From positions 930,001 to 994,000 of the forward strand of contig CM120643.1 of the NCBI GenBank assembly GCA_051362555.1: a DNA stretch of 64,000 nucleotides, read 5' to 3'. Numbering within the stretch: position 1 is the stretch's first letter; each line of letters opens with the position of its first letter. The stretch comes from Lingula anatina. Lineage: Eukaryota; Animalia; Brachiopoda. The notes beneath the pieces were generated by a model. The model was not told where the DNA came from. It did no database searches and was given only the letters and a program-made list of their open reading frames with translations. This document shows positions 21,101 to 56,615 of the stretch, one piece after another. Made by a program: the position numbers and the translations under genes.

Positions 21101-21103
21101 GTC

Positions 21104-30831: not shown

Positions 30832-31305
30832 TTATACTGGTTCATATCCTTTTTTCAATGTTGGCTTGGCAAGTATACTACTAACGTATGCTTCCAACTC
30901 TCTCTTTATCTGATTCTGATTAAGTCGCTCTTCAGGCTGACGTTGGGTGCACTTCTGGATAATCGCCCACCACTTGGTCTCCAACCCCTGGGCGTTGGCA
31001 CCGTGAACATCGCTGAGTGCTGAGAGCACCGCCTCTCCTGTTCGGAGACGGTTAGTGAACTCTTCTACGGTGACGTCACTGGCATCATCGTAGACTTGCT
31101 GACCGTTCCACAGCTCCCACATTATCAAACCAAAACCATAGATGTCGCCTTCGTGTGTGTACACCCCGCCTTGGAGGACCTCTAGCGGCAAATATCTGCA
31201 GGCACCGAGGGGCTGTAGGCGTCCAGCTGATGGGATATTCGCCGGTCTTGGACACCCAATGTTAAAGAGTTGAATGTGTCCATGTTTCTCCGGCGGCTGA
31301 TCCAC
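30832..31305 (-). CDS. Dynamin-like/pseudokinase gene, terminal exon (kinase C-lobe)
   Basis: Acceptor tgtAG, phase 0; IQLFNIG (DFG site), YLPLE (APE site), EGDIYGFGLIMWELW, CTQRQPEERL. Confidence 0.85.
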   Translation of the reverse strand: MDQPPEKHGHIQLFNIGCPRPANIPSAGRLQPLGACRYLPLEVLQGGVYTHEGDIYGFGLIMWELWNGQQVYDDASDVTVEEFTNRLRTGEAVLSALSDVHGANAQGLETKWWAIIQKCTQRQPEERLNQNQIKRELEAYVSSILAKPTLKKGYEPV

Positions 31306-31553
31306 CTACATGTATAAAAAACCTTATTATTGTTCCTGGTTTGCAGACAAAGGGTATATAAAATTGTTCATAGTAAAATATAACAGCAAAAACAGTATAT
31401 GTCCATATGTCTGGTTTCCAATCGAGATCCCATATATTATGTCATATGACAACTCTAAATTGACATCGAAAACAAATACCCATGGTAGTTTAAGACTTCT
31501 GTGGGGAATCCCAGCAGTAACAATATATGCATCATTTTTACCTCCATACTCAC

Positions 31554-31693
31554 CATAACCGTGTCCATGGACAACTCCATATGAACAAAACCCTTTTGGT
31601 GAAGCCACTCCAACGCGTCTATCAGCTGCTGGAGAAGGGGGATCAAACTGACGAATAACCGCCACTTGCAATCCTCTATTGATGAGACAAGGC
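31554..31693 (-). CDS. Dynamin-like/pseudokinase gene, exon (alphaE and catalytic loop)
   Basis: aaatAG acceptor phase 1, ATG|GTGAG donor phase 0; QLIDALEWLHQKGFVHMELSMDTVM. Confidence 0.85.
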
Positions 31694-34003
31694 CTATTTC
31701 ACAGGAAAAAAGTAGGTGTAGAACCGCATTGCAACCGAATTGCAACCAAACGCATCTCGTAACTGCAGTGCATTTTGAAATCAAAGTAAAACGTCAGCAC
31801 GCACTTTGCAACCGCAATGAATTTAGCCACTATTTTTTTTTCATTTCTAAGTCACTGAAACTGTTTTTAAAACTCATAAGTACCCTAAAGAAATACAGGT
31901 GGAATAGGGATGAGATTATTAGCTCATTGACGCTGTTTCAGGTGGGGCTCGGTGGAGATGGTTGAAACTTTGGGTATTGAAAAGCCTAGCTATCATCAGG
32001 GGATTTGTAGGGTTCTTCGGTAACAGCATGCGCCCGGCTGTCCACGTAGGCAGAAGGCAACTGGCTGGAAAACGTTTTGAAACTTTTCAGTGAGTCCGCG
32101 TCAGGAGGTAATGCCGTTTCGCGACATCTGCGATGACCGACATAAAAACCGTAGATCTACCTTGGAAATTGTAGCTGCACTCAGTCAAAAAAAGGGAATT
32201 CTCCCTTTCTGATTGAATTTACTGAATTCAAACGTAAAACTGAAAGAAAAATGAAATAAATAAATAAATAACAGAACAAAAATTGTAGCGAAAAATACTG
32301 AAAACAAATTAACCCTCATCCACAAGGAAATGGAACCCTACGTAAACCCTGAAACACCGAGTCCGCTCGGCATACAGAAAAAGTGTATATTGCACAGGGT
32401 CTGAAAACTAGGGTCCTACTGTAGAACAGTAGACATTTAGTAAAAGTGCTTTATATTCACACACATAGTAGTATTATAATAAAGCAAACCTTTGATGCAA
32501 GTAAATATAATATAACAAAACGGCAGTGGTTTGCACAACAACCTGGTGGTGTAGTGGAGAGCAACACGGATGAAGAACCTACCATGGAATGAATGTAGCA
32601 GTCTACCAGACATGGCTTGAATCCCCCAATGGATTTGAGTTTCGTGTACCTCCCATATTTTTAATTTTGTTTTCATGAAAAATTTCACCTGCAAACTAAC
32701 AAAGTGTCAATATATCCTCCATTATGCATACTTCAAGATAAAAGTCTCAAATAAAATAACAATGATTGAGTTTTGGGGGAGTGGGGGTCAAAATTTATCT
32801 TGGGGGGGGGGTCTGATTTTCATTATGAAATTTTGACTGGGGAGTCAGATTTTTGTTATGGGGAGTCACCTTTTAGGGGAGACAAATTTTCATGGTACAT
32901 GTTGTAAATAAAGCCGTAATCCTTGAAAATCCATGGTGACAGTGTAGGACATCGCGAGCAACTAGTCATTTTATACCTTGAGAACAATGAAATACGTTCC
33001 TTTTTGGTTGATTCCATTTAAATGTTATTTATTTTATTTGAATGTAATTAAATGAGTATACAATGACACTTTAATAATAAATGAATTCCTTCCGTTTCAA
33101 AACATATTTTGCACAGCTTAATACTGATGCACTGTATAACGCTTGCTGTCAAACACTTGAGTGGTTGTAAGCATCGCTGCATTGTGTATGTCTAGCTTAC
33201 ACATATTTATGAGTGGTAGTCAAATAAGGCAAACGTATAGGGGGGCCTAGTCCAAATGATCACAAGGCAATGGAATATCTGTGAAAAACCTCAAACGAAA
33301 AATAAATTAAATGTAAATAACAGTGTGTATAAAACATTTTACTGCAGAATGACACACAATGAGCTTACAATAAGTTAAATATTTTACTTTTAAGTTAATT
33401 ATAAGAGAAAAATAAGAGTAAGTACCCCCACCCCCACAAAACTCAATAATTGTTATTTTATTTGAGTATAAGATATATTGACACTTTGTTAGTTTGCAGA
33501 TGAACTTTTTCATGAAAACAAAATTAAAAATATGTATTTTACCACCCAATGACTCCCCTATGAAAAAGCTATTAATTTGATATTTAGTGATCATTTCAAC
33601 ATCTTTCCTTTTAGTGTACTTTATGAATAATATATTGGATAAAATATTGGGTGGAAAAATATCACGAAAAATATTCATTTTCATTCATAACTTACGTGAG
33701 TCAAAATGTAAGAAAGTGAAGTGAGCAAAAAGAAATAGGGAGGAGGCCTTATATACGCTGTGGAATGAAAACTGTTCAGTGCAGGGTGTGGTACAGGCAT
33801 GTGACGGTGCGGTTAGGTAAGTGCGGTGGCCTGTAACGTTATAATTAGTAGAGCGAGAGAGAGAGAGAAAATAGAGAAAGAACGGAAAATGTACTTCGCA
33901 TGAATAATAAATAAATAAATAAATAAATAAATAAAAATAAAAAATATCGCAGGCAGTTACAGAAATAAGACTATTAAAATCAAACAAAAACATAGTGCTC
34001 AGT

Positions 34004-34635
34004 CACGCTCGGCTGTCACCTTGATTGGATAGTAAACGATTATCGTAATATCACTAAATGATTTTAAAAACGGGTGCATTAACTTGAAAACCACCTAGAA
34101 CAACCTTAGACTGCCACATTAATCCAATACAATGCAAAAATAAACTATAATAAGTGGTTAAAGCATTCAAGCCGAATGTCGTTAAGTCCCCATATACCTC
34201 CTAGAGACAATAAAATAGAGTAAGCTTGTGAAACAAGATTCCACAAATTTAAACATAATAATCGAAATAAAATACTGCCGGGCATCGTAGCGGCCTAAAA
34301 CTTGGCACGCTTACCGCAAATGCCGCAGGCTTCATCATCCTGTCGCTCGTTTGTTAATTCCGTGCATGGCATATGCACAATCAAACCGTAAATCCAAATT
34401 CCCGCTTTGACGCTTGAGTCGGTCCTCTCTAACCTCCCATTACACCGGGCTTACGAAAAAGAAGCCATGCCATTGGACAGATATTTGTAATGCTACCTCT
34501 GCGGTTTGTGGAGAGGACCGACTCAAGCGTCAAAGCGGGAATTTGGATTTACGGTTTGATTGTGCGTATGATCGTAAAATCATTTAGTGATATTACGACA
34601 ATCGTACTATCCAATCAAGGTGACAGCCGAGAGTG
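34004..34635. mobile_element. Foldback/hAT-like non-autonomous element with long TIRs
   Basis: TSD tgctcagt (8 bp) on both sides; 34004-34066 pairs with 34575-34635 and 34375-34430 pairs with 34511-34565. Confidence 0.75.
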
Positions 34636-35620
34636 TGCTCAGTCATTTTACAGACATGTAGAAAAGCATGTACTCTTACCCTTGGTTTCAAATGGACACG
34701 CAGATGAGCATTACATATGAGTGAAATACAGACACAAAAATAGCACTTTGGAAATAATGAAGCAAAATTGTATCTCGTAGGCGGTGGGACTATAGTGCGA
34801 GAAAAAAAGCTGCCAGCCTGATTTTTTTTGCATATCTAGATATGAGTTAAAATATCATGTTAGGTTTAAATTTTCAGTTGCATAAATGCGTTATCTCTAG
34901 TATAGCTACACTACTCCCGAATTCAACATTCAACGAAAAACTAAAAACATTAAATTACGTCTTTCGATATCTCTCTCAAACAGTGAAATTTCTCAAAATG
35001 TTTCGGTGTTGCTTTGGCCCAGAGTTGACCCGTTGGCAGACTTCGTCGAGTTCTACGTCATTCATTTCTTCTTGCTTAAAGGTCAGTTGCACGCTTAGAG
35101 ACGCGTAGTAAACTCTGCTACCATGTTTTAATTTTTCACCAGGCAATAGAGTACAATTCTTGAATTTCCTCGACGGTTGCGAAATTGACAAATTTCCGAC
35201 CACGACGTCATCTCAGCGCACGCGCTCCGTTCTAAATATCTTCCTGCGCGCAGCCAGTTGCCATATGACTGCCCAGGGTGGATAGGCATAATTTTACTCA
35301 CTGTTATTTTCGATATCTTTTCTTAAGCCATTACAGTGTGTACTTGTTTAAAATATTTTGGGATTAAAAATTCGGTCTGATAATCATAAGTTGCTAAACT
35401 ATTTGGTGCTCTGTAAAATATTTATCGCTTGACTTTGACTATAATTAAAACACACCCTGATGTAGCAGTTTAGAGGCATTGTAGCTACTGTTATGGGGTG
35501 ATCGCGGGCAAGGGCACATTTAACAAATAATGTTGATCTCGTTAGCAATCGTTTTCTTGATAATTTATGTGAACAATACAGAAGGTATACAGCACCAGTT
35601 AATACTCTAACCAAACTGAC

Positions 35621-35754
35621 CTATTTTGCGGTCACACCGTTTTCGCAAGCTCATGATTGTACCACTGAACACCAGGGACGGCAGGCTGGTAGACGGGTCG
35701 TTGAAACTCCCCATTAGTGCAGGGACGTATATCTCCCCGGGTTTTCCCAAAAAT
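35621..35754 (-). CDS. Dynamin-like/pseudokinase gene, small exon (kinase N-lobe/hinge); not in the ORF track
   Basis: ttatttgcAG acceptor phase 2, ATAG|GTCAGT donor phase 1; reads FLGKPGEIYVPALMGSFNDPSTSLPSLVFSGTIMSLRKRCDRKI; phases match both neighbouring exons. Confidence 0.78.
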
Positions 35755-36033
35755 CTGCAAATAACAAAACGTAAAGAACATTATATCATGGATGCCTTTC
35801 CATTTAGAGAAGGAACTACAGTGTAATAAAAAGTAATGACTTAAAAGGGTAAATAAAGGTACTACGACTTGTCGTAGTTATAGTTAGAGTGTGAGCTATT
35901 GCTGATTAAATGTAATGTATTCTGGTATCCCAAATGAACATTTTTATCTATTAATATGTATTCATGGAAATAATGATACTCAGATCGTACAAGAACCATG
36001 GAAAAACATACCCGGCAAACTACTTAATAAACA

Positions 36034-36093
<60 letters not shown>

Positions 36094-36144
36094 CAATGAA
36101 ACAAATAATTAAAGCAAAAGTGGAAGGCCTTTTTGATAAAAACA

Positions 36145-36190
<46 letters not shown>

Positions 36191-36635
36191 CATTTGGATG
36201 ACACTCAAAATAAATGCTTCTCAGAGCGGCAGATCCAACACCACGATTCTACAACACATACCAGTAAACACGTCTTATGTCTTTTTTTTATCTTCGTCTA
36301 CGACACGTCCACACAAAGATGTCATTGCGAATATTCAAAAACTTGCAATGGTGCATCTATATAAACTAGAATAATTTCATTGCCAATAAACTGTTCCAGC
36401 TTTCTTAAATAAAGCTTTTACTTTCTGCAGCGGTTTGAGTACGTGACTTTGACATGTAAAGTTATTACAAAGATCAACCCAAAGCAGTGTAAAATGGTCT
36501 ACTTGCTTCGCTACGGTATTACTGATGAAAACAGGATTCTCACTTTAGCACACATGCTCAGGCACAAACGCACACACAAACAAAAACAAAAACGCACATG
36601 CAAAAAAAAAAAAAAAAAAAAAAACATTTTCTCAC

Positions 36636-37850
36636 CTCAGAGCTGCAATATCATCTAAAGCATCATCCTCCGTAACTTCCAGATATGCCTTGATCATCAC
36701 TTTCGCTCCAGAATCTTTCAGGTGTAATGGGTAGACCTGCGACCAGATCCCGCTTCTAACAATGGAATCAGTTGGTTGGATGGTTGAAAAGCTTTCAACC
36801 CCATATGATTTTCTATCAATGAATTTCAAATAGAATCTCTCCAGGCGATACAAAGTTGATCCCTGGCCAATGCCAAGCGTTTCCACAAGGGGTCTGTAGG
36901 TATCAATTATTTTGTCTCTGGAACGCTGATCGTCCTGAATGCAAGTTAAAAGCTTTTGTGTACCTTCTACTAACTTTGGAATGTGAGTTTTCATGATCTC
37001 TAGTTGGTGATAGGCAACATCAAATCGGCCTTTCACGTACTCCTTGCAGAGGCCTAAATCCAGGAAAGCTTGACATATCTTGTTTGCTTGTTTTGTCAGA
37101 AAACCTGTCGGGTTGGCACGATAGAGATGTACAACTTCGGCCTGTCTCTTGCGGCGTATCCATTTCTTAATACTGGAAAGTCCAAACAGGGCCATCGGAA
37201 TTGCCGAAAAGATTCCAGATACGCAACCAACGGACATAATTACCGGTGCAAACAGATCAATGGCGACTTTTTCTTTTAATGTCACGATCGGCGTCTTGGC
37301 TACGTCATCATCCTTCAATCCTTCCACATCGATTTGAAACTCATCTGTGATATCCTGCAAATTTCCCCTGGGGTATGCATAAGTTTTTTCAATCAGATCA
37401 TCTTCTATCTGCTTCAATTTACTTTCAAGCAGTTGGAAGTACGTGGCAAACTTTTTGAACTGCGCCTCCAGTGCAGTAGCCATGTAGTTCCCCTTTTTCT
37501 CCCAACTTGAAATTATGGACATTAATTTTTTATTAATGGTTTCTTCTATTATCCACTCAAAGTCCTCAAAGAGTAATCCACTTTGGGTGTCAGGCAATTT
37601 CCACTCCGTTAGTGCCTGTTTTACCTCACTTGTACAGAAGTGATCTTTCAAACAAGTTGCCGTAAATTCTATATTATCTGCTAAGTCTTGTGTGAGTTCC
37701 TCCATCTCGGAATCAGCGTTGTCCAGTAAGGTCTGCAGCTTTTGCTCCACCTGGAGATGGATCTTCAACAGGTCTTCCTTAGACAAAGACGCATTGGAGA
37801 CGTACATTTCGGCAGTGGTCATGACTCTGGTCACAAACCGTCTCAACCAG
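36636..37850 (-). CDS. Dynamin-like/pseudokinase gene, large exon (helical stalk, hydrophobic hairpin, kinase N-lobe start)
   Basis: ttttcaAG acceptor phase 2, AG|GTGAG donor phase 2; coiled coils; VAIDLFAPVIMSVGCVSGIFSAIPMALFGL then KKWIRRKR; IVRSGIWSQVY..VMIK. Confidence 0.85.
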
Positions 37851-37854
37851 CTTG

Positions 37855-38597
37855 AAAATGATGATGATAGAATAAGTAAACCATGAAAGGTGGCAGTCCT
37901 CGGGCTGGGATGATGGTAAAATAAGTAAACCATGAAAGGTGACAGTTCACGGGCTGGGATGATGGTATAATAAGTAAACCATGAAAGGTGACAGTTCACG
38001 GGCTGGGATGATGGTAGAATAAGTAAACCATGAAAGGTGACAGTTCACGGGCTGGGATGATGGTTTAATAAGTAAACCATGAAAGGTGACAGTTCACGGG
38101 CTGGGATGATGGTATAATAAGTAAACCATGAAAGGTGACAGTTCACGGGCTGGGATGATGATAGAATAAGTAAACCATGAAAGGTGGCAGTCCTCGGGCT
38201 GGGATGATGGTAAAATAAGTAAACCATGAAAGGTGACAGTTCACGGGCTGGGATGATGGTATAATAAGTAAACCATGAAAGGGGACAGTTCACGGGCTGG
38301 GATGATGGTATAATAAGTAAACCATGAAAGGTGACAGTCCACGGGCTGGAATAATGATAAAATAAGTAAACCATGAAAGGTGACAGTTCACGGGCTGGGA
38401 TGATGTTAGAAAACGTAAACCATGAAAGGTGACAGTTCAAGGGCTGGGATGAGGGTATAATACGTAAACAATGAAAGGTAACAGTTCACGGGTAGGGATG
38501 ATGGATGATTATGTAAACCATGAAAGGTGACAGTTCACAGGTTGGGATGATGGTAGAATACTTAAACCACGAAACGTGACAGTTCACAGGCTGGGAG
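37855..38597. repeat. 49-bp minisatellite, ~15 units, abutting the splice acceptor
   Basis: Unit aataagtaaaccatgaaaggtgacagttcacgggctgggatgatggta(t/g). Confidence 0.95.
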
Positions 38598-38700
38598 TCT
38601 ACTTAGCTTCAGGCTGGAAGAGCAATTAGCCTCAGGCTGGGAGACCACTTAGCCTCAGGCTGGAGGACTGCTTAGCCTCAGGCTTTAAAACCACTTAACC
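38590..38700. repeat. ~21-bp tandem repeat (cttagcctcaggctgggagacca); second block at 39140-39235
   Basis: Direct reading. Confidence 0.8.
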
Positions 38701-39788
38701 TGAGTGTAGTAAACCGTTAATTAGTGCTGATAACATAAATTTGAATACATATCATTTACATATCCAAATGGATCTAAGCATGACGGTTTGCATGCGGTGA
38801 ACTATTAATAGTATTGAGAGCTAATTTCCATATATGTGATCTACATATTCGTTAATGCAAATTGTACCCACAATTAAATTTTAAGGTCTTGAGGCATGGC
38901 ATGTCGCATGTCAGTCCTAGAAGTTAATCTAAAATGTAAATTAAGTTCATGTATAAAAGTAGAGAGACTGAGAGAGTAAGGGATAGATACGACAGAGAGA
39001 GATGGTAAAAGAGACCTGAGTCTTCAGTCGGTTGAATAAATCATGTAGCAGAAAACTATTCCTGCCTGTCTCAGTTGACTTATTGGTGAAAAAGTAACTC
39101 TAAGAAGGTGTGTATAACCACCGGCCGGTTATTACATGAGGCTGGGAGAGCACTTAGTCTTAGGCTGGGAGACCACTTAGCCTCAGACTGGGAAACCACT
39201 CAGCCTCAGGCTGGGAGACCACTTAGCCTTAGGCTGCTCTACATAAACAAGCGTATATGTGTGAAAGTGTAAACCATTAGCCTGTTAAGAAATCAAACGT
39301 ACGCAAATTACTTAAAAAAACTACTGTTCAACGCAACATAAATCAAAATATCATTTTTTAATGACAGTTATACTTTAATAATAATATTTATTTATAATCT
39401 AAAACCCATTAAAATGTTCAGGGGTAGAATTAACAAAATAAGCTTAATATAAATTAATGAATAAATAAAATTATTAAGAGAGTAAAATACAGCGTATAGC
39501 ACAATGTAAAGTTAAAAAAAGCCAAATTATTTTTAGAGCATATTGGCAAAGAAAACAAAAATGTTTTCATTGTCATGGTCTCTACCGTTTTGTAACTACA
39601 TTGGTAGAATGTTCTATTCATTTGAGTCTCTGATTTGTAGAGCTAAATAACGTAAAACCTATGTACGTCGCCATAGGTTTTACGTTATTTTGGCTTTCTC
39701 AGCAAGACTGAACGAGTGATCAAAAAATAAGAATGTCCCAAATATTGATAAAATCAAATATCATTCCATGGTCTACATGTAATTTTAA

Positions 39789-41020
39789 GGCCTCAAGGAT
39801 ATTAATGAAAAAGTCCAAAACTAATGCAGCTTATTTAAGCTAATTTAAGCAAAACAATTTTCCAAAGCTTGTAGTCGCAGTGTAACACGAGTGACGTATC
39901 AGCGTTTTCATTGCTTAAATCAAGTTTTTCTCTTAAACAAAAAAACCCTAAAAATACGATTGAAAGAGCTATCTAAAATTTAGCACAAAAAACAGTAAAC
40001 CGACTTTGGATTTTCTCTTGTTATTTTTACTTTTGATTTTATTTCGATAAAACATGTATTTCACGAAATATATATGAACCCTCCACTTTCAGTATAAATA
40101 ACTTCAAAAATAAAAGGTCAATCAAAAATCAAGATACAGCTGAAAAGAAATTATACTGAAACACAGCCACATCAAATTTCATGTAAATCTGACAGTTAAA
40201 TTTTGAGATATGGTGGTTGAAGTTTAGACTATGTCATCAATCTCCAAAGCTGAGAAATCGCTCGTAAACCATTTGACGCAGGTAATTGGGCTAATTCAGC
40301 AAATTTACTGCACCTCCACCTTACCTGTTAATATCTTATTGATCAGAAAGGTCTACACATCATTATGTGTTAAAATTGGGATGTTTGTTTCTATCTAGAT
40401 GCCAGAATATCTTACTTTTTGTACGCAAACTTATTCGCCCCACGAAAGCCGCTCTTCCCTGAGAATTGATTGACAGCTGAGTACCTATTCCCGTTTCACT
40501 GAAGTAATTGACTATAATTGTGTCTGTCGCAGTAGGAGACTGTGCACTGTCTAGGAAGTGTCTAAGGAAGCGCTACAAACAAAAAGCAAATGACTTGAGG
40601 TGCAAGCAGAGGACAATGCCACCGGTCGTGCGTGAACGTCGCTCTACACACCAAGACGCGAAAATTGAGAAAGCAAAGAAATAATTACTCCGAGAAATGG
40701 CCGAATGTGGGTATGTGTCTGCCACGATGCCACAAAGTAATATGCGAGTTTGAAAATGGTTTTTGGGTGGCAATATTACAATTTATAAATCTGCTTGCTG
40801 TTACGATTGATCTTTATTATGAATGTAATGATAGCCTAACGATGAACGAATACTCAGCAGCTCAAGTGTGATCCCGCCCCCCTTAGTAACGGTGCTTGAC
40901 AACGTAGGCGGAGCCTAAAGGCTTCCATGCGTACCAGTCAGGACAGGTAGAAAACTCGTCCAAATGTATATTATTTGTCCGTGTTGCAAAAATACAACTT
41001 AATTCAGTATCCTTGAGGTC
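39789..41020. mobile_element. TTAA-flanked non-autonomous DNA transposon (Kolobok-type)
   Basis: TTAA at 39785-39788 and 41021-41024; TIR ggcctcaaggata / tatccttgaggtc. Confidence 0.75.
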
Positions 41021-41070
41021 TTAAGGTACTTGCCAGATTTTTGTTGAAACGTTAAAACTCTAAAACTCAC

Positions 41071-41396
41071 TTATAATTCAGTAGAATCTGCCTCTGCAAG
41101 CTGATTGGCTCCAACTCCTTGATTCCATTAAGTAGAGCTTCATATTCATCACTTACGTAGCCCAGTTCCATGCTGACCCGTGCTTTTTTTGCTGCCATGG
41201 TGAACAACTGCTTCTCTGGACTGATTCCAGGCCAACATTTATCAAGATCCTTGATGATTTTTTCCTTCACCATTTTCCTGTCTTCCTTTGGAACCAAATC
41301 CCATCGATTACAAACGAAAATGGCGGATCTAGGATCGAATGAGTTTGTGCCCTCAGTGCCCTGATGTTCGACAAGCATTTTCAGCAGCTTTTGAAG
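41071..41396 (-). CDS. Dynamin-like/pseudokinase gene, most 5' exon found (end of dynamin-like GTPase domain)
   Basis: ttttAG acceptor, AA|GTGAG donor phase 2; FDPRSAIFVCNRWD (G4 NKxD-like), CWPG, LFTMAAKKA. Confidence 0.8.
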
Positions 41397-43420
41397 CTAA
41401 AACGTAAGTAAAATATTGAAACATACAGTGCAGACATTTTCTGAAACAAATATCAGATAATTAAAAAAAAAATGTTCCTTCATTGTATTATATGATGATT
41501 TATTAACTGTAAGACAACTGGAAGTCAATATAACCTTCAGATCCCCGTTTCATTAAAATTGGATAGCGGCATGCTATGGATAATACTGTCTACTGGATAA
41601 AATTGGTATCTTCTGGACAGTTATCGTGAGGACATTATTAACCAGCGGGTGACAGTGACAGAGCTCCAAGAAGTCTACAGCCTCGGGGAAATATTTACTA
41701 AGAACAGGATAACTGTCCTTTGATGAAACCGGTGTAACATTAATCCAGGTCCCCCAGGACCTACGGATCTCGGTTCATGGTAATGGTTGTCCATAGGACT
41801 GCCATTACTTATGGATAGTAGTGGGGGGGGGGGGGGGGGGGGGGATGATAATACCAACCTTTTTGTACTACCCCCCTGAAATTATGTAATGGGTCATAAA
41901 AGACATAACAGTATTTTTTTTAGAATTTTAAAACCCCTCTAACCCCCCTGTACATACCCTCTGAAGTTTGCCATATTCGAAATTACTGATTTTTTTGCAA
42001 TTTTTTGCATTTTTTCATGGTATTTGCCCTTCTTAATGTTCCAAATGCTAAGAGAAATATATTCTTGTAATTTTTATCCACAAATATCAAGATAAAACCA
42101 GTTTCAACATCATAGCTAAAGAAAATAATGAAAAAATAGACCATTTTTGCTCATAATCGTTTAGGGCAGACCCATATTTTATGTCACACACTGAATATGC
42201 TATATCTGAATAGTATGTTTAATACATCAAAATAATCCTTGATGATTGGCCTTTCTTTTTGGTATAAAACAATAATCACATGGGTCTCAGGGTTGTCACC
42301 TACACATCAGAATTTACCCCTACCCCCTTTATCATGATAAACATGCAGGCGGTTGCTTTGTGATTTGGGGGGTTCAATACCTCTTTTGAATGATAAGTCA
42401 GCCCCAGAAACTATGTTCTTATAATAAAACTATATATTTCAATTATATTTATGTTTAATAATTGCACAAAACTGTTCAAAATATTGCACAACCCTACAGA
42501 TACTTGGTAAAATAGCAATTCTAAGACATCTGCCAACCCCTTGCTTGATTTTGTTGCCTTGGAGAACATACAAGTGAGTGTGAAATGAAGATATTTTGTC
42601 AAATGTTTTATTCAGAATATTTTTTCTATCTTTGAAAAGAGATGCCCAACAGAATAATGTTGGATATTTACTAGTATATATACAGGGAACAAACAAAGCA
42701 GTACTTGTCTGTGAAGTGCAAGAATTAAATGTGGCGGATCATATATAATGATGTATGAAGGTGTAGGAGTTCAATATAAACTTGACATAGAATATTTATG
42801 ATCAAAGCCACATCAAAATACAATGTTTTTAATACATTATCCCAATATGACAAAGAAAACTGCTAAGTATGTAACTTAATTATATCATAAACATTCTTAG
42901 TCATGTTTGAACAAGATCCTATACATATACATGTACCATCCATCCTTTTCCATCCATGTATTTCACACTGCAACACAGCTTCATTAGTTCCAACAATTTA
43001 TTATTATACAACATTATTCAGTTGGAAATGTTCTACTCAAAGAGTGGAAAGATATTCTTGGACATGCAGACATTAGCTATTTCAATGGCAACTTCTTTGC
43101 TGGTCTCAGTTTATGATAGTGAGTGTTTCCTGTCTGCATACATGAAGAACCAAGATATATCATCCATTATTGCTTGCGTCATTAAAAAATTATGTCACTG
43201 AGTGATAAAAAACATCCAGTCTTCTGTTGTGAGATATTTTGGTCAATGATATCAAATCTGACATAAGATGCCATTCAGAAGAAAGGAACACCCCCAGAAA
43301 ACCATATCAACAGTTTGATGTCAGAATTAACTTTAAGCTAAGATATTAAAGAAAATGATAGCCCCCGGACAGTGATATGTTACACAGTTAAAGAACTCAC
43401 TACAGTAAATCATAAAAAGC

Positions 43421-43583
43421 CAGTAATTGCGGGTATGACCTCCAGCAGCCGCTTGCAGCGCCCTCATCCTACATGGCATACCCTGTGACACGTTTTTTAG
43501 AGTTTGGGTGGAGATATCATTCCACGCAGTGATATTTGCCTGTGGCAGTTCATTACTATTTACCGGCCGATGACCATAGCTAT
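43421..43583 (-). pseudogene. Tc1 transposase C-terminal fragment
   Basis: GHRPVNSNELPQANITAWNDISTQTLKNVSQGMPCRMRALQAAAGGHT. Confidence 0.8.
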
Positions 43584-44560
43584 TACCGTACTAGTATTAA
43601 GTATGTGTATATTTACCCCGTGGATCATTTGAAGATTACACTGCGATTAATGCGGTGGAAAATACAATAGAGGGAGTGTATAATGATAGGGTCGCTAAAC
43701 GATTGTTGACGGCATATTGTAACTAGCCTAACCCTCTGGTCGCCTGGGTAGCCATGCCCCCTTAGAGTACTTATGTAAACAAACGGTCTCCCGTAGCGAA
43801 CTATCCTTTTGTCCAACAGCATCGCGCGTGCAGCTGATTATGTATGTAGTGACACTATAGCTATCTGCATATTCATTTGTGCTACCTGTCTTTTGATTCA
43901 TTCTGCTGTGTCAAATGTTGTGAATCAGCCCACTGGTTCGTTGACTTATTTTTTTCTGAAGATTGGTGATGCAGATATTGAGTGCTTAATTATTTACCCT
44001 CCTTCTAACAAGAGAAAGGGGAAAGGAGAGAAAAAGAGAGAGTGTCAAATGAAATGGGTAATGAGTAATACAATACATTAAAAAAAGGGACTCGCGGTGG
44101 AAGAAAAGATTTGCATCAAGGTATGCAATTATAATTCGACATGGCCCATAACATGACTATATATTGTATGACTTATATTTGTGCCGACTTATATTTTACT
44201 CTCGTTCATTTCGTGAAACTATTTCCTTGAATAAAGTTTTGCCTGTATAAATTTACTTTGTGACATGAAGTAATTAATAAAACAAGCCTGTTGAAAAGGG
44301 GGCTTTTCGTAACTAATACAGGTTCACTGTTCAGAAAAATATTGTCGCCGTTCATCGCCGCTACCTTCAGGAAAGCGTACCCTCCGCTTGGATCACCGGC
44401 ATTTTTGGTTATCTGACAAATTAGGGCAATTTACGTTTTAGCTAATAATTCTGAATTTACTAATATCTTGGACTAAATTCGATGTCAGATTCAGAGCAAT
44501 GACGGAAAGCCGCCTGAGTAACTGTTTAATTTTCTAAACTAATCAAACTAGAACGCGTGG

Positions 44561-44932
44561 TTTTTTTCCAGATGTTTTTTATTATCAGTCGAAAACGTTT
44601 TCATGTTTTACTTCTCAAACCTGTACGTACACTATTCTGGACTATTTTATTTTATCCAACTACACATACAAAATACCACTACCCCCCCCCCCCCCCCACC
44701 CATAAACACACACACGCCTTCTTATATTTTGCCGTTTTTGCGTCACTTGTTGTTGCACACCCTGAAGATCTAAGGCGCGTATGATACCATTCATTGTATG
44801 ATAATCTAAGCTACATTTTTCAGACAAAATCATTCAGACCTTTCAACACGACTGGTCTCCTCGAGAATCTCCCCATTTAGGGACATGTCTCCTGATTCCC
44901 CGTTTCATAATAAACACCCACTGATTTATCAG
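44561..44932 (-). mobile_element. 372-bp insertion with 14-bp TSD (retroposon-like)
   Basis: actagaacgcgtgg duplicated at 44547-44560 and 44933-44946; T7 run at left edge; absent in copies 2 and 3. Confidence 0.65.
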
Positions 44933-45053
44933 ACTAGAACGCGTGGCGATACAATTTGTCGCTAGATCTTGTAAACACTCAGCGAAATGCACCTAGTGAC
45001 TATATTCAATGTGCCGTCACTTAATTGCTTTCTCGATTTCATTAATTGACGAT

Positions 45054-48000
45054 CATGGGCGTACAGTGGTCGGAATAATTTTGTTTCCGTTGTACACCGG
45101 TGTAACCACGTTCGAAATGTTTTAATCCCTATCTTGTGAATAGAAGGGGGCGGACAAACAATGGAGGGCCGTATAAATCCCTTCAAAATTCGAACGCACA
45201 AACGCAATAGCTTAGGTGGAATAACACAATACTTAATACGTGTGAACCCCATGACGCCGGTTTCTGTGGCCCAGCGCGAGCGTGACAATCCGCTGTAACT
45301 AGGTGTAATTAACAGCAGGATACATCAGCCAGAAGGTCCCTATTGTTTGTTGCGGCGATAGGATTATAGCTTGAAGAGGCTAAACCCATGCTAAGGCGTG
45401 CCACGCGAAGCGAACTGTCCTTTTGTTCACTAGTTTGGCACGCGCAGCTGGTTTTTAGTGTTGCTAACAAACTGCTAGTTAAATTTGTTATCAGTTATTT
45501 CATCCTATATGAAATTTCCGCAGTCAAAAATTGAACTAATTATTGTTTGTTTGGTTGAAATGCATGAGCGTCAGCATCAATCTGTCTCAAAAAATTCCCA
45601 TTGCATTAATTTATAAATGTATAATTTATTTATGTACTTACGTTTTAATTTGAAATATCTGCATTCAAGCGTTCAAGTATTTATAAGACATGAATGATTA
45701 TGAAAGAGGAATAAGGAAATAACATATTACTTATATTATGCTTATATTATAATATTGAAATTAAATGAGGTGCATTGACATAGGCGCAATGACAATCCAA
45801 CTACAACGTGCAACAGGGGGAAGTCTGGCTGTATGATCATACAATATACGAAAGTACGGTCAATTAAAAGTGTAAATCATCAGTTAAATAGGAGGGGGTC
45901 TTACTATGGTCGCTATCTATTGTTAAACCCGACTGTTATTGTCTCTCGAACAAGCTTAAAGCATGCCTATACAATTACTGTGTCTCCGGCTGCCGTTCAG
46001 AAACACCATGTCGAACGTATTTTGCTACAGTGAGAAACATGGTACACTAGCGACTTGTTTTAGATCACTCAAGAAAGGATGCATACGTGCGACACCAGAG
46101 GAAAAACAATCAAGTATGCTTCTGATCCATTAATAGTAATTGCACAGTGCATGTTACTAGACCTTTGTCCTAACTCAGTAGTTAGGAATAGGATGTTTGG
46201 ATAAAAAGCTTCTATTCAACTCGCTTAGACCTAGGGCGTGATGCTATCATCCGATGAAACACGTAACTGCACCCTCTACCTGAACCTGAAGTCCCTTTAT
46301 CTGAGACAAAAACTGCCCCTTGAACATGTCCATTTTTTAATCGTCAAATGATTTGTGATTTCATTGAACGTCTTTGATCGAAAGCTTTCAAGTGACAATA
46401 ACCGAACCATGTGTTGATTATTTATTAAAGCGTAATTAAGTTTATTCAACATGATCTATTTTGTAAACGATACTTGCCAAGATTGAGCTTGGATTGATAA
46501 CCGTCACTATTTAGCTACTCGCCTATAATGCGTGCTGAACGACAGACAACTTAAAAATATTATCTGTGTAACTGTGCAAATGCAAATGTTAAAATATAAC
46601 AAAGCCGGCATCTAATCCATCGAACGTATCTATATTTGTTCTTTTTAAACCAGTGTAAGGGTAACGCCAAATCAAAGCAAGCCTTGCAGACTGGTTTTGT
46701 TTAAACTGTCGTGCATCAAGTAAAGCTAAGTAAAGCCTGTTTCTACTTCGCAGTGTTCATCCCAGCCATAAAACTGCATGAAGGATAACAAGACTCCGTA
46801 GACCTGTGCTTCAGGTTTCCAGGAGTCCCGTGTAACACAATAATATCGAAGGCCTGAGAGTAATACATATATGAGGCCGTGTATGAAAGATTTAACAAAT
46901 TAGAAATTCAAGAATTTAAACATGCTAGGTACATGCACATCACTTAATAAGTCATTTCACAAAAATCGCATCTAATTGTTTAGATTAACCTTTACTTTTA
47001 TCGATCTCATCCCATTGTCTCAACCACCTAAAAGAAATATAGAGAACATGAGGAAAAGTAACACGTTTACATGCAGGCGAAGGAGTTATACTTCAATATT
47101 AATCGCGAACAATATCAACAGCGACTAAAGACCGTTGCCTGTCTTTCACACTTTTACACAAACACACGAAGGTTTAATAAAGGGAGTTGCGGCGCGATAT
47201 CTACAGGTATCTCTTTCATTCGAACAAGCAAAGGGCTGACCCGAAGTAAGCTTTCTATACTAATGTCCTTTTTATTGTGTATTGTAATTACTCTACTTGC
47301 TCGCCTCCATTGTCTTGTAAAAGTGACAAAGAATGTGTTGTATTCACACACGAGATGAAAGAACTCCTTTACCTTAAGTTGCATAATGTCTTTCTCAAGG
47401 TTATAATCAGTGTGAAGAGGGTGTCTTGCCTCATTTAAAAAGGGTGTTGTTCTTCATACTGGTTGTTGCTTAACTTATGCTAATCTTAAACTTTTATGTA
47501 CCAATATGGTTTTAATAAATCGCTAAAATTATTAATTTAATGAACATTGTGTATCAAACGTTTTGATACGATTTAAATAAATGGACGAGGAGGATTACGG
47601 TATTAGGTTCTATTTACCTCTGGCTTTAACTTCGCCCTGCTATATAAATGAACAAATGTTGCAGATCGTAACAAAAAACTTTCTTATAGTGTTTTATGAC
47701 ATATATGATTTACACATTTGATAGTGAAACACTCCTCGACTTTAACGAATCACCTGACGTAAACTGTCTACCCGCGCTCCCCGAAAAAAACTGTTTCTTT
47801 TAATTTTGAAATGAATTGCTTTTAAGGCAAAGAAGTCCATTAAACCCTTTAGTCTCAATATCATTGTACAGCATGTTGTAATCGATATTTAAAAAAGTTA
47901 ATTTTTGTACTTCGCTTTCATCGAGGATACCTCAAGTTGAGGTTACAATTACGTCGCTCGCCTATGCTACTGGAATATATATTTAAGGACAAATTAAGCT

Positions 48001-51000
48001 TTGTAAAGTCCCTATTGTCACACACCATAGATACTTTATTTTGTCTTGAATGAAAAAATAGCCTCAAATTATCGTTTTGTGCTTAAACCTTTCATTACTT
48101 GAACCAAGATCTGTACTATAGCTACCAAGACGTACATGCATCAAGTTGGGTCTGCTGGGGGAGGGGAGCATTTAAATGATAAACGAGGAAGTCTACCTGC
48201 AAAAGCAGCAGCAGTGGTTTAAATAATCGCTATCTAGACTCCTTTTTCTTTGACAGCAACATAAAAAGTGTTTAGGGAGAAAGTCACACAAAGACCCGAC
48301 GTTGTTTTGTCTTCAGCATTTCCTCTTCCTTGTTATCTGCAATTACTATCGTCAATTAATGAAATCGAGAAAGCAATTAAGTGACGGCACATTGAATATA
48401 GTCACTAGGTGCATTTCGCTGAGTGTTTACAAGATCTAGCGACACATTTTATCGCCACGCGTTCTAGTTTGATTAGTTTAGAAAATTAAACAGTTACTCT
48501 GTCGGCTCTCCGTCATTGCTATGAATCTGACATCGAATTTAGTCCAAAATATTAGTAAATTCAGAATTATTAGCTAAAACGTAAATTGCCCTAATTTGTC
48601 AGATAATCAAAAATGCCGGTGATCCACGCGGAGGGTACGCTTTCCTGAAGGTAGCGGCGACGAACGGCGACGATATTTTTCTGAATAGTGAACCTTTATT
48701 AGTTACGAAAAGCCCCCTTTTCAACAGGCGCGTTTTATTAATTACTTCATGTCACAAAGTTAATTTATACAGGCAAAACTTTATTTTAAGGAAATAGTTT
48801 CACGAAATGAACGAGAGTAAAATATTAGTCGGCACAAATATAAGGCATACAACAATGAGTCATGTTATGGATCATGTTATGGGCCATGTCGGATTATAAT
48901 GGCATACCTTGATGCAAAACAGTCTATCGTTTCTTCCACCGCGAGTCCCTTTATTTAATGTAATGTATTACTCATTACCCGTTTCATTTGACACTCTCTC
49001 TTTTTATCTCCCTTCCCCTTTCTCTTGTTAGAAGGAGGGTACATAATTAAGCACTCAAAATCTGCACCACCAATCTTCAGAAAAACAGAAGTCAACGAAC
49101 CAGTGGGCTGATCCACAACATCTGACACAGCAGAATGAATCAAATAACAGCTAGCACAAATTTATATGCAGTTAGCTATAGTGTCACTACATACATAATC
49201 AGCTGCACGCGCGAAGCTGTTGAACAAAAGGATAGTTCGCTACGGGAGACCGTTTGTTTACATAAGTACTCTAAGGGGGCGTGGCTACCCAGGCGACCAA
49301 GGGATTAGGCTAGTTACTATATGCCGTCAACAATCGTTTAGCGACCCTATCATTATACACTCTCTCTATTGTATTTTCCACCGCATTAATCGCAGTGTAA
49401 TCTTCAAATGGTCCACGGGGTAAATGTACACATTCTTAATCCGAGTACGGTAACTAGGCATACGCACGGATGCACTGTGCGTACAATTTTTTTGGCCAAC
49501 CATGATATTATTTTATATAAATTTAGTGTATTTTTCACGGAATATAAAAAAACCCTCTGCTTATTAAAGTCACCTGTATGTACAAATCCTCTGTATCAAT
49601 TGTAGGCCTATAGGCACAATTGTTCTGACCCCCCCTCCCCGTCTTGCAAACTGAGGTTAACAATGCCTGTAACCTTAACAATTCCTATCTTAGTCGTCCA
49701 TCTAACTGGAACTTCCTTTACCTCTTAATTGGAGGGTTCAGTGGCCCTCAACTCTTCTGTACAATCTTTCTTCAGAATATCAAGCGCATTCTCACTGGCG
49801 ATATTCATCTCAGGAAAAATCTGCCTGAGTGTTATTTTCAAAGAGCGGCTCGATCCCGCAACCCTGGGGGCACTAGATAAAATCTGAACACCAGGTTTAA
49901 GAAGGAGCTAGAGAAACAAAAGAAAGGATTTTTCCTGCAAATCTGCAAAGAATTTTGACACGGACTTGACCCAGCTTACCCCTCCAAACTAACAGGGTGA
50001 CAGGGGCAGTTTTTACAAACAAATAATTAAACTTAGATGGTTGGTTTTGGGAGCCATGCATCCACATGTAAGGTGAATCTAAGATCTAATAAACGGATAA
50101 ACGTATATTTGATCTTAGGGTGAATGAAACCGTATGTTAGTTCAACTCAGAGGTGGATCCAGGATTTTTTGAAGGGGGTTCCACATATGCGAAGCTAGCA
50201 GGGGCGGATTTAGTGCGTCTTCTGGGTCTTCCGGAAGACGGTCATATTTTAAAGTTTACATTGACAGGTATCTAATTATTTCTGTCGGAAGACGGTCAAA
50301 AAATGGAGGATGGATCAACAAAGATAATTTGGAAGACTGTCAGGAAATAACTCTGGGTCCGCCCCTGGCTAGCCTCCCTATAAATAAATATACCGTTCTG
50401 GGTAATAAGAATATTGAAACTTTTTTTAATTGCGAGAATATTTCTGACTAAATGATAATTTAATAATAAATGGAAATTAAGCTGCGATGTGTGGTACACA
50501 TGCAGGGCCGTAGCCTACGGTGGGGGCAGATGCCCCCCCCCCCCCCCCCTTGGGATTTGAGGTGCAAAATAATGATAATAATAATAATAATAATAATAAT
50601 AATCGCAGAGGTAAAAAAAAATAATAATTGCAAAGTTGGTTTCAATTCTGTGAAAAAATGCACTCATGGCCACTAGACAATCATTCAACAATATGTTTAC
50701 AAAGGTGTACTGTTTTTAGCCAACTCTCTCTCCCCTCCCTTAGGAAATAAAGTCCAATTGGCGTGTTGTGTTGAAAAAATGACTGCACTTATGGCAAAAT
50801 GAACCCACAATTTCTGACTTCTGATTGAGCAATAAATAACAGTTAAAATGCACCAGAATGGAGTATTATACATACAGTTTTAAAAAAATTTCCACATCGT
50901 GGGAGGTGGACACCCCCTCCCACACCCTCCCCCCTCGGGGGCTCCGCTCCCTCGTGTCCGCTTACTGCCCCCCCCCCTGCCAATTTGCTCAGGCTACGGC

Positions 51001-51108
51001 ACTGATATGCTGTAATTACGCCGTCCTTCATGTCTTGCGTTGGTCTACATTTTGCTGGGAATTTTTAAGATCTGTGCGTACAATTTTAAAGGCCTGGTTA
51101 CGCCCCTG
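45054..51108. mobile_element. CAGGGGCGTA-type element (~1.67 kb) with 5-bp TSD ACGAT; copy 2 sits in its left TIR
   Basis: catgggcgTA|actaggc vs gcctggttacgcccctg; acgat at 45049-45053 and 51109-51113; contains further MITEs at 50199-50367 and 50503-51004. Confidence 0.75.
45064..49450 (-). mobile_element. 4.35-kb TA-targeting non-autonomous element, copy 2 (complete, inverted)
   Basis: TA|CAGTGGTC ... GTACGG|TA; reverse complement of 51891-56239. Confidence 0.88.
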
Positions 51109-51890
51109 ACGATAGTAATTGCAGTAAACAAGGAAGAGGAAATGCTGAAGACAAAACAACGTCGGGTCTTTGTGTGACCTCTCCCTAAACACTTTTTATG
51201 TTGCTGTCAATGAAAAAGGAGCCGAGATAGCGATCATTTAAACCACTGCTGCTTCTTTTGCAGGTAGACTTCCTCATTTATCATTAAAATGCTCCCCTCC
51301 CCCAGCAGACCCAACTTGAGGAATGTCATAGTAGACTGTATAGTACACTGTATATCAGATCTTGGTGCAAGTTATAAAAGGTTGCTATTTTTTTCATTCA
51401 AGATAAAATTAAGTATCTATGGTATGTGACAATAGGGACTTTACAAAGCTAAATTTGTCCTTAAATACATGCTGTACAATGACAATGAGTAAAAAAAAGG
51501 GTTAATGGACTTCTTTGTCTTAAAAGCGATTCATTGTGAAATTAAAAGAAATAACAAAAAAAAAAAAAAAAAAAAAAGGAAATTAGTTTAGAAAGCTTAC
51601 TTTGGGTCAGCCCTTTGCTTGTTCGAATGAAAGAGATAGATATCGCGCCGCGACTCCCTTTATTAAACCGTCGTTTGTTTGTGTAAAAGTGTGAAAGACA
51701 GGCAAGGGTCTCGAGTCGCTGTTGATATTGTTCGCGATAATATTTAGTTACACGGGACTACTGAAATCCTGAAGCACAGGACATTGTGAAAGTTAATTCG
51801 CTATGGAGTCTTGTTTTCCTTCATGCAGTTTTATAGCTGGGATGAACACTGCGAAGTAGAAACAGGCTTTACTTAGCTTTACTTAATATA

Positions 51891-54800
51891 CCGTACTAGG
51901 ATTAAGAATGTGTACATTTACCCCGTGGACCATTTGAAGATTACACTGCGATTAATGCGGTGGAAAATACAATAGAGAGAGTGTATAATGATAGGGTCGC
52001 CAAACGATTGTTGACGGCATATAGTAACTAGCCTAATCCCCTGGTCGCCTGGGTAGCCACGCCCCCTTTGAGTACTTATGTAAACAAACGGTCTCCCGTA
52101 GCGAACTATCCTTTTGTTCAACAGCTTCGCGCGTGCAGCTGATTATGTATGTAGTGACACTATAGCTAACTGCATATAAATTTGTGCTAGCTGTTATTTG
52201 ATTCATTCTGCTGTGTCGGATGTTGTGGATCAGTCCACTGGTTCATTGACTTATGTTTTTCTGAAGATTGGTGGTGCAGATTTTGAGTGCTTAATTATTT
52301 ACCCTCCTTCTAACAAGAGAAAGGGGAAGGGAGATAAAAAGACAGTGTCAAATGAAACGGGTAATGAGTAATACATTACATTAAATAAAGGGACTCGCGG
52401 TGGAAGAAACGATAGACTGTTTTGCATCAAGGTATGCCATTATAATCCGACATGGCCCATAACATGATCCATAACATGACTCATTGTTGTATGCCTTATA
52501 TTTGTGCGACTTATATTTTACTCTCGTTCATTTCCTTGAATAAAGTTTTGCCTGTATAAATTAACTTTGTGACATGAAGTAATTAATAAAACGCGCCTGT
52601 CGAAAAGGGGGCTTTTCGTAACTAATAAAGGTTCACTATTCAGAAAAATATCGTCGCAGTTCGTCGCCGCTACCTTCAGGAAAGCGTACCCTCCGCTTGG
52701 ATCACCGGCATTTTTGATTATCTGACAAATTAGGGCAATTTACGTTTTAGCTAATAATTCTGAATTTACTAATATTTTGGACTAAATTCGATGTCAGATT
52801 CATAGCAATGACGGAGAGCCGCCAGAGTAACTGTTTAATTTTCTAAACTAATCAAACCAGAACGCGTGGGGATAAAATGTGTCGCTAGATCTTGTAAACA
52901 CTCAGCGAAATGCACCTAGTGACTATATTAAATGTGCCGTCACTTAATTGCTTTCTCGATTTCATTAATTGACGATATTAATTGCAGATAACAAGGAAGA
53001 GGAAATGCTGAAGACAAAACAACGTCGGGTCTTTGTGTGACTTTCTCCCTAAACACTTTTTATGTTGCTGTCAAAGAAAAAGGAGTCTAGATAGCGATTA
53101 TTTAAACCACTGCCGCTGCTTTTGCAGGTAGACTTCCTCATTTATCATTTAAATGCTCCCGTACCCCAGCAGACCCAACTTGATGCATGTACGTCTTGGT
53201 AGCTATAGTACAGATCTTGGTTCAAGTAATGAAAAGTTTAAGCACAAAACAAAATTAAGTATCTATGGTGTGTGACAATAGGGACTTTACAAAGTTTAAT
53301 TTGTCCTTAAATATATATTCCAGTAGCATAGGCGAGCGACGTAATTGTAACCTCAACTTGAGGTATCCTCGATGAAAGCGAAGTACAAAAATTAACTTTT
53401 TTAAATATCGATTACAACATGCTGTACAATGATATTGAGACTAAAGGGATTAATGGATTTCTTTGCCTTAAAAGCAATTCATTTCAAAATTAAAAGAAAC
53501 AGTTTTTTCGGGGAGCGCGGGTAGACAGTTTACGTCAGGTGATTCGTTAAAGTCGAGGAGTGTTTCACTATCAAATGTGTAAATCATATATGTCATAAAA
53601 CACTATAAGAAAGTTTTTTGTTACGATCTGCAACATTTGTTCATTTATATAGCAGGGCGAAGTTAAAGCCAGAGGTAAATAGAACCTAATACCGTAATCC
53701 TGCTCGTCCATTTATTTAAATCGTATCCAAACGTTTGATACACAATGTTCATTAAATTAATAATTATGGCGATTTATTAAAACCATATTGGTACATAAAA
53801 GTTAAAGATTAGCATAAGTTAAGCAACAACCAGTATGAAGAACAACACCCTTTTTAAATGAGGCAAGACACCCTCTTCACACTGATTATAACCTTAAGAA
53901 AGACATTATGCAACTTAAGGCAAAGGAGTTATGCAAAGTTCTTTCAACTCGTGTGTGAATACAATACATTCTTTGTCACTTTTACAAGACAATGGAGGCG
54001 AGCAAGTAGAGTAATTACAATATACAATAAAAAGGACATTAGTATAGAAAGCTTACTTCGGGTCAGCCCTTTGCTTGTTCGAATGAAAGAGATAGATATC
54101 GCGCCGCGACTCCCTTTATTAAACCTTCGTGTGTTTGTGTAAAAGTGTGAAAGACAGGCAACGGTCTTTAGTCGCTGTTGATATTGTTCGCGATTAATAT
54201 TGAAGTATAACTCCTTCGCCTGCATGTAAACGTGTTACTTTTCCTCATGTTCTCTATATTTCTTTTAGGTGGTTGAGACAATGGGATGAGATCGATAAAA
54301 GTAAAGGTTAATCTAAACAATTAGATGCGATGTTTGTGAAATGACTTATTTAGTGATGTGCATGTACCTAGCATGTTTAAATTCTTGAATTTCTAATTTG
54401 TTAAATCTTTCATACACGGCCTCATATATGTATTACTCTCAGGCCTTCGATATTATTGTGTTACACGGGACTCCTGGAAACCTGAAGCACAGGTCTACGG
54501 AGTCTTGTTATCCTTCATGCAGTTTTATGGCTGGGATGAACACTGCGAAGTAGAAACAGGCTTTACTTAGCTTTACTTGATTCACGACAGTTTAAACAAA
54601 ACCAGTCTGCAAGGCTTGCTTTGATTTGGCGTTAACCTTACACTGGTTTTAAAAGAACAAATATAAATATGTTCGATGGATTAAATGCCGGCTTCGTTAT
54701 ATTTTAACTAAATGCGTTCATTTGCACAGTTACACAGATAATATTTTTAAGTTGTCTGTCGTTCAGCACGCATTATAGGCGAGTAGCTAAATAGTGACGG

Positions 54801-56239: not shown

Positions 56240-56241
56240 TA

Positions 56242-56615
56242 ACTCTGTGAGTTACTTTTGCCCAAAGTTTTTCAATTGGGTTCATATCTGGAGAGTTTGC
56301 AGGCCAGGACAGTTGCTGAACCCATTGGTTTTGAAGAAAAACAGTGCTTCTGCGGCCTCGATGTGGGGTTGCGCAGTCGTCTTGGTACACAAAGTTGTTC
56401 CTGAAGATGACTCTTACCAATCAAAGCATTGTTTGCTGTAGGATGTCGCTGTAGGAATCCTGGATGAGGTTGCCTCTTAGAAAAACCAACTGGTTCTGGG
56501 TACCGACATGAAATGCTCCCCAAACAGAGACGTTACCATCCCCTGCTTGCACACTAGGCAGTACACAATCATCGTTTTATGCCCCTCGTACAAGTCGGTG
56601 GACACTGATTCAACA
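56242..56615 (-). pseudogene. Tc1 transposase catalytic core (DD34E), with stops
   Basis: GDGNVSVWGAF..YSDILQQ..FVYQDDCATPHR..WPANSPDMNPIEKLW; 34 residues between D and E. Confidence 0.88.

Follow-up and report, generated by a model that had tools for sequence, protein, structure and literature searches.

What a kinase domain stripped of its catalytic residues does on a membrane GTPase is the question raised by a locus of the brachiopod Lingula anatina. The locus occupies the minus strand at 30832–41396 of a stretch of 64,000 nucleotides (contig CM120643.1, positions 930,001 to 994,000, assembly GCA_051362555.1), which is referred to here in its full length as the window. GTPases of the dynamin superfamily are not normally found in one protein with a kinase. 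A preliminary description, made from the letters of the DNA, proposed that the locus fuses a dynamin-like GTPase, a membrane hairpin and a pseudokinase. The reading that we favor, tentatively and at somewhat less than an even chance, is that these exons belong to a GTPase of the BDLP/mitofusin fold with a dead kinase, which would be one half of a hetero-oligomer with a neighboring paralogue that keeps the kinase motifs.

Gene structure and fold

The five exons proposed earlier, with phases 2,2,1,0 and about 760 residues, were recovered as a join of 2289 nt encoding 762 amino acids and one stop. Splice sites were canonical throughout, with AG at 5/5 acceptors and GT at 4/4 donors; the acceptors carried 10–15 pyrimidines per 20 nt, and the GC content was 45.5% in the exons versus 37.1% in the window. 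All motifs named before (AIFVCNRWD, the hydrophobic stretch, KKWIRRKR, VMIK, HME, and NIG) are present. The features, in the direction of transcription, are as follows.

41397..64000, no strand assigned: upstream region with no G1–G3 exon; 13,767/22,601 bases (61%) are repeated within the window
41396-41071, minus strand: exon a (326 nt), C-terminal part of the dynamin-like G domain including G4, and first neck helix
41309-41298, minus strand: G4 motif NRWD (within AIFVCNRWD), in exon a
37850-36636, minus strand: exon b (1215 nt, 405 codons, phase 2-2), neck and trunk helices, hydrophobic hairpin, return helices, and kinase beta1 to alphaC
37145..37267, minus strand: hydrophobic hairpin (residues 304-336) with basic KKWIRRKR, a predicted membrane-inserting paddle (Kyte-Doolittle peak 2.04)
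36636..36754, minus strand: start of the pseudokinase N-lobe in exon b, with a degenerate G-loop and the alphaC Glu lost
36691-36689, minus strand: retained beta3 Lys496 (VMIK), in exon b
35754-35621, minus strand: exon c (134 nt), kinase beta4-beta5 and hinge
31693-31554, minus strand: exon d (140 nt), alphaE and catalytic loop, with HMELSMDT in place of HRDLKxxN (HME at 31583-31575)
31305-30832, minus strand: exon e (474 nt with TAA), NIG in place of DFG (31263-31255), activation segment, C-lobe, and stop

These are not chance open reading frames, since exon e matches Pfam Pkinase (E 3.6e-9), a HMMER scan with exon b found 52 relatives at E<=0.001, and the b/c/d/e junctions recur in the L. 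anatina RefSeq model XP_013396487. No real Pfam family was found in exons a, b, and c, and exon b gave no match when longer proteins were searched by word index. Exon a matches L. anatina XP_013396513 at 96/109 residues, and exon e matches XP_013396487 at 154/157. The exon layout is old because single-exon open reading frame fragments of relatives have the same RWL start and the same LR end as exon b. Trunk and kinase N-lobe lie in this one exon, and therefore the fusion of GTPase and kinase is real and the kinase is no separate gene; 117 relatives of at least 850 residues align over both parts. The kinase fold is thus present as claimed but begins inside exon b rather than with a separate exon group, and a gene made of the kinase exons alone was excluded on the same ground. 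A minisatellite of 49 bp x 15 at 37860-38596 abuts the acceptor of exon b and is followed by 23-bp arrays; an extension of exon b from stop to stop through it was rejected, this DNA being intron.

The idea that the chain is a whole gene was not borne out, since about 320 N-terminal residues with G1–G3 are absent from the window. The closest relative with intact G1–G3 is XP_013396513 (84.7% identity over 366 residues), which adds these residues with G1 (GETSSGKS), G2, and G3 (DTPG) and a Dynamin_N match at E 8e-17. Of the GTPase motifs, the window holds only G4. Compared with its relatives, the full gene would encode about 1,080 residues, of which the window holds the part from G4 to the C-terminus, roughly the back three-quarters. 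The missing exons likely lie beyond position 64,000, and the region 41397..64000 is likely either a single intron swollen by repeats or the point at which the gene was cut.

A profile of 14 sequences matched 318 proteins, and among the 120 listed most family members are about 1,000 residues long and combine Dynamin_N with a kinase. Their hosts are stony and soft corals, bivalves, Lingula, hemichordates, and lancelets, with one gene in Capitella, and lineage-specific expansions are found in corals, bivalves, Lingula, and lancelets. In the databases they are called "uncharacterized," "DSTYK-like," or, wrongly, MAP3K, FGFR, or other unrelated kinases. Scans of metagenomes confirmed nothing with the dead-kinase alignment and gave 21 loci, mostly short, with the active-kinase alignment; all 79 of the 79 loci from 1/64 of the prokaryote set matched the kinase part only, and the viral scan gave no family match. 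A literature search, with supplements outside its reach, found no description of this family or its pairing. The domain pair itself is already visible in public annotation; what is new is that the dead forms make up one ancient clade and that they seem to be linked repeatedly to active paralogues.

An AlphaFold model was made for the full-length dead Lingula paralogue XP_013411824, which is 30% identical to the join (predicted local distance difference test score, pLDDT, 82.6; predicted template modeling score 0.75). Its best Foldseek match was BDLP 2j69 (E 1.3e-17). Residues 68-730 aligned with the G domain and neck (HD1) of MFN1 5yew in VIA-align (Z 28.9, root-mean-square deviation 4.6, 351 aligned), and residues 730-1022 matched kinase folds. 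In this model of the paralogue, the neck and trunk bundles close back on the G domain. A hairpin at the trunk tip is supported by hydrophobicity, with a window of >=1.6 in 101/117 relatives, nearly all at the hairpin position; the region itself (548-612) was modeled with low confidence (pLDDT <50). A model of XP_013396487, 97% identical, gave Z ~20 to many kinases. According to the models, the chain is predicted to run out to the hydrophobic tip and return to complete the neck, which would place the kinase alongside the G domain and at a distance from the membrane. With Dynamin_N in the relatives and BDLP and mitofusins as top folds, the layout of dynamin-like GTPase, trunk, hairpin, and pseudokinase proposed at the outset stands.

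Several variations on this plan were seen. The model of P0104 has a three-helix N-terminal domain (residues 9-53), conserved family-wide and outside all fold matches, which is a candidate pairing or targeting domain. In the active-kinase members P0147, P0148, P0154, P0155, P0158, P0161, and P0171 of Branchiostoma and P0146 and P0157 of scallops, the strongest window of hydrophobicity lies away from the hairpin, which suggests, from the sequences, soluble variants. The oyster protein P0150 (Ostrea edulis LOC125665478, 1,465 residues) carries HEPN_DZIP3 in addition to dynamin and kinase domains.

The dead-kinase clade and its active neighbors

The window copy is a pseudokinase: the kinase fold was recognized by Pfam and in the model, and the HRD Asp, DFG Asp, catalytic Asn, and alphaC Glu are lost. 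The HRD motif is replaced by HME, the catalytic Asn by Thr603, and DFG by NIG, the beta3 Lys is kept, and one G-loop Gly remains. The initial list of lost motifs was right but short, since the alphaC Glu (Ala512 here, Glu in 21/21 active relatives), the catalytic-loop Lys, and the catalytic Asn are also gone. Some pseudokinases bind ATP independently of cations, and with the beta3 Lys kept such binding by the dead domain is possible.

The motif census, which counts isoforms and close orthologues too, covered the 117 long family proteins: the full motif set was seen in 71, the dead signature in 34, and other states in 12. Dead members keep G1, G3, G4, and the beta3 Lys in 34/34, the HRD Asp in 7/34, and the DFG Asp in 0/34; G1–G3 are intact in all 34 as in XP_013396513. 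Trees of 64, 34, and 36 hand-picked sequences, unrooted or midpoint-rooted, recovered the dead genes as monophyletic on the kinase (0.999) and, independently, on the non-kinase half, with supports of 0.945 in FastTree (15/64 sequences), 93.3/95 in IQ-TREE (11/34 sequences), and 97.3/96 in IQ-TREE with Capitella (12/36 sequences). The clade has its own residues, namely a catalytic-loop Ser in 11/11, Asp in 10/11, and Thr in 10/11, and Pro-Arg in 10/11. Because the clade includes genes of an annelid, a brachiopod, two hemichordates, and lancelets, the loss of the catalytic residues likely predates the protostome-deuterostome split, as far as the sequences tell. The dead motifs are common to the orthologues, so recent decay of the kinase under relaxed selection in the window copy alone was rejected. 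Outside this clade, degenerate kinases (HRG, HRH, HGD) were seen in P0127, P0132, P0159, P0162-P0164, P0169, and P0174, from corals and unnamed records; within the family, kinase activity seems to have been lost repeatedly.

Dead and active genes are recorded side by side in several genomes; the pairs below have consecutive accessions.

Lingula anatina: XP_013396511-12 active, XP_013396513 dead
Ptychodera flava: XP_070564252-53 dead, 254 active
Branchiostoma lanceolatum: CAH1255337-39 dead, 340 active
Branchiostoma floridae: BRAFLDRAFT_81322 dead, 81321 active
Branchiostoma belcheri: XP_019636106-09 dead, 110-11 active

In Saccoglossus, dead and active genes lie on one scaffold of 448,542 bases, and at a second locus of B. 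belcheri they share a scaffold as well. Two lancelet pairs branch in parallel with full support (dead P0124 with P0133/P0135, active P0082/P0033 with P0120) and look co-duplicated in the trees.

In the mechanism that we propose, the hydrophobic hairpins are predicted to insert into a membrane, where dead and active chains could co-assemble by analogy with the pairs of bacterial dynamin-like proteins (DLPs). Most bacterial DLPs form side-by-side pairs, and the Campylobacter pair is a 2:2 tetramer needed for GTPase activity and lipid binding (PMC6104087). GTP-driven hinge movement would then bring the two kinase domains together, the pseudokinase would gate or serve the partner kinase, and membrane tethering or repair could thereby be coupled to phosphorylation. 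The least supported step is that the membrane would be that of a damaged or pathogen-containing compartment, as in defense. An immune role of the family has only hints in its favor, namely the lineage expansions, the HEPN-fused oyster member, the kinship of the Eleos dynamin fold, and the STAND-TPR gene near the window copy. In its broadest form, the proposal is an animal two-gene system that would go back at least to the protostome-deuterostome split, in which DLPs with active and dead kinases would assemble together on membranes that are damaged or contain pathogens and convert GTP-driven remodeling into a phosphorylation signal, with DSTYK as the lone vertebrate relative; this we consider doubtful, though possible.

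State of the window copy and rival explanations

The window copy is probably intact. Its 762 codons contain no internal stop or frameshift, and its kinase part is 97% identical to that of L. anatina (10/288 residues differ, 278/288 being shared with XP_013396487). The N-terminal half is 86% identical (49/356 differ; Fisher p 4e-6), and the nearest relative of the neighboring gene is at 86-89%. At the level of residues, the divergence of the N-terminal half fits fast evolution of a membrane-facing part, relaxed selection, or a paralogue mosaic alike. A rival explanation accepts the family and the dead clade as described and regards the window copy as a 5'-truncated or decaying duplicate, with repeats upstream and the GTPase exons lost or silent. 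Its case begins with the 22.6 kb upstream, 61% of it repeated DNA, where G1–G3 exons were not found in 41400-64000 by tblastn or by a six-frame 15-mer scan (best 8/15). When four RNA runs, from nine chosen by species label, were mapped over 30300-37856, one of them (X7) covered exons b and c at trace level, below 1x (exon c depth 0.75); there were no reads on exons d or e, and no splice joints were listed. A short repeat at 34004-34390, in the intron between exons c and d, has deep, divergent RNA coverage from other loci. Among 48 scorable differences in exons a-b, the family profile favors the L. anatina residue in 34 and the window copy in 14 (p 0.006), or 30:16 when scored against dead-clade members alone (p 0.054). 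Two residues of the hairpin, G307D and P315S, depart from the family pattern, and in the comparison of the window copy with L. anatina the terminal branches are 0.138 versus 0.020. The trace RNA and the hairpin drift mean that the copy may be decaying. The frameshift in the neighboring HEPN-STAND-TPR gene and the partial models of several L. anatina copies point the same way. Set against this are the uninterrupted 2,289 coding bases with canonical splice sites, a kinase part far closer to L. anatina than the neighboring gene is, the RNA that does fall on exons b and c, and the gene architecture itself, since introns of 3-4 kb in the rest of the gene and about 14 kb of upstream repeats could move the exons out of the window. 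On balance we regard truncation or decay as unlikely.

These findings on the window copy weigh against the hetero-oligomer reading too, and others bear on the pairing itself. Adjacency was read from accession numbers, not map coordinates, and tandem paralogues are neighbors by default. The window contains no active paralogue elsewhere in its 64 kb, seven further L. anatina models of the dead type are placed on different scaffolds, the partner survey covers neither these seven nor the Capitella gene, and the active partners form no supported clade. A lesion or an assembly error splits the reference gene that is its counterpart in L. anatina, with XP_013396513 ending in a shifted frame and XP_013396487 on the same scaffold of 645,407 bases. 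No coral or mollusc protein falls in the dead clade among those aligned, and therefore active-type genes seem to exist without a dead form. In a second rival explanation, the dead-kinase protein acts alone as a homo-oligomer, its pseudokinase locking the GTPase of the same chain in cis or serving it as a sensor, an MLKL-like switch, and the adjacency is a relic of tandem duplication. The intact GTPase motifs in 34/34 dead members, the position of the kinase directly after the last neck helix, and the several dead Lingula copies with no known partner are all in keeping with it; the recurrence of adjacency in brachiopod, hemichordate, and lancelet and the two lancelet pairs that look duplicated as units are not, and we consider a lone-acting protein quite unlikely. 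It is very improbable that the family has a housekeeping function in membrane traffic, such as the fusion of lysosomes, vacuoles, or mitochondria, in the manner of a DSTYK in many copies or an additional mitofusin, with the dead domain as no more than a structural remnant. DSTYK, linked to lysosome and vacuole biogenesis, provides the nearest look-alike clusters outside the family, and the closest solved folds are fusion GTPases, but lineage expansions, the HEPN-fused oyster member, and the conserved dead-clade residues fit a selected, variable role better than that of a single-copy housekeeping gene.

Kinship, surroundings, and meaning

Among known systems, the top sequence and fold matches are Nostoc BDLP1 (2j68/2j69) and MFN1/MFN2/Fzo1, which share the G1-G4 GTPase, the neck and trunk helices, and the hydrophobic trunk tip. 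Unlike them, family members carry a kinase or pseudokinase C-terminal to the last neck helix and a small N-terminal helical domain and are multi-copy; identity is 15-18%, and there is no Fzo_mitofusin Pfam match among those listed. The bacterial DLP pairs (Campylobacter DLP1/DLP2, IniA/IniC, DynA, and Eleos LeoA/LeoBC) are likewise side-by-side paralogues of the same fold, and matches include 5owv/5oxf and IniA. However, the partners described here differ in kinase state, and their co-assembly is putative. Profile matches to LeoA/LeoBC were weak to moderate (E 2e-4 to 2.5e-14) and reflect a shared fold, not membership in Eleos. Kinase/pseudokinase pairs are known from JAK JH1-JH2, RIPK3-MLKL, EGFR-HER3, and LKB1-STRAD. 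In these pairs, too, a dead kinase fold is under selection beside an active one, and the JAK2 pseudokinase was among the tied fold matches (Z 19.8), but the two kinase domains here are on separate dynamin-like GTPases and there is no MLKL-type four-helix executioner. The analogy to MLKL drawn earlier found no specific support, since a dynamin-like GTPase and not a four-helix killer domain precedes the kinase; the HeLo-like four-helix bundle and brace were not found before the pseudokinase. MLKL is absent among the 50 tied kinase-fold matches listed, which does not exclude a likeness of the fold.

The relation to DSTYK was supported in part. Coral and mollusc members of the family group in clusters of their own in the ESM Atlas, with a Dynamin_N share of 98%, and the nearest clusters outside it are those of DSTYK (score 0.93, 527 residues aligned over 55-1000, template modeling scores 0.42/0.45). 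No Dynamin_N share is seen in the DSTYK clusters of chordates and molluscs, which are distinct from those of the family; mollusc DSTYK lies apart from the mollusc family members, and the window copy lacks active kinase motifs. The label "DSTYK-like" is given by NCBI to many members from corals and bivalves. A review of RIP kinases credits DSTYK with 9/12 critical kinase residues, and its passages on DSTYK do not use the word dynamin (PMC9573974). The family is thus likely a relative of DSTYK and not its orthologue, a placement made by Atlas clusters and not by a tree with DSTYK.

Further features of the window include a neighboring gene and mobile elements. A HEPN(DZIP3)-STAND/NB-ARC-TPR gene at 5001-10054, minus strand, is 86-89% identical to L. 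anatina LOC106175059, which is on another scaffold than the dynamin-kinase genes; a one-base frameshift near 7330-7370 marks a pseudogene or an assembly error. At 13192-22230, minus strand, lie pieces of a tyrosine-recombinase retroelement, which we take to be DIRS-like: a zinc-knuckle gag (21104-21706), a reading frame similar to reverse transcriptase, RNaseH, and Dam (19813-21423), and an integrase-like one (13192-13947). A 5.9-kb element without long reading frames, with terminal inverted repeats of about 1 kb (92.6%) ending in TACCGTAC, is likely a non-autonomous DNA transposon; after it come a 96% copy in inverted orientation and an older one at 78-83% (43583-49453, 51889-56241, and 59672-64000).

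In hundreds of invertebrate genes a membrane GTPase of the mitofusin/BDLP type is joined to a kinase, and these genes include an ancient dead lineage recorded beside an active twin. The lancelet pair BRAFLDRAFT_81321/81322 is intact and suited to biochemistry. If the two proteins co-assemble, the pair would be an animal counterpart of the bacterial DLP pairs with built-in signaling and a new setting for pseudokinases. It would also be a candidate arm of invertebrate cell-autonomous defense and a testable lead for the N-terminal half of human DSTYK, whose function is unexplained.

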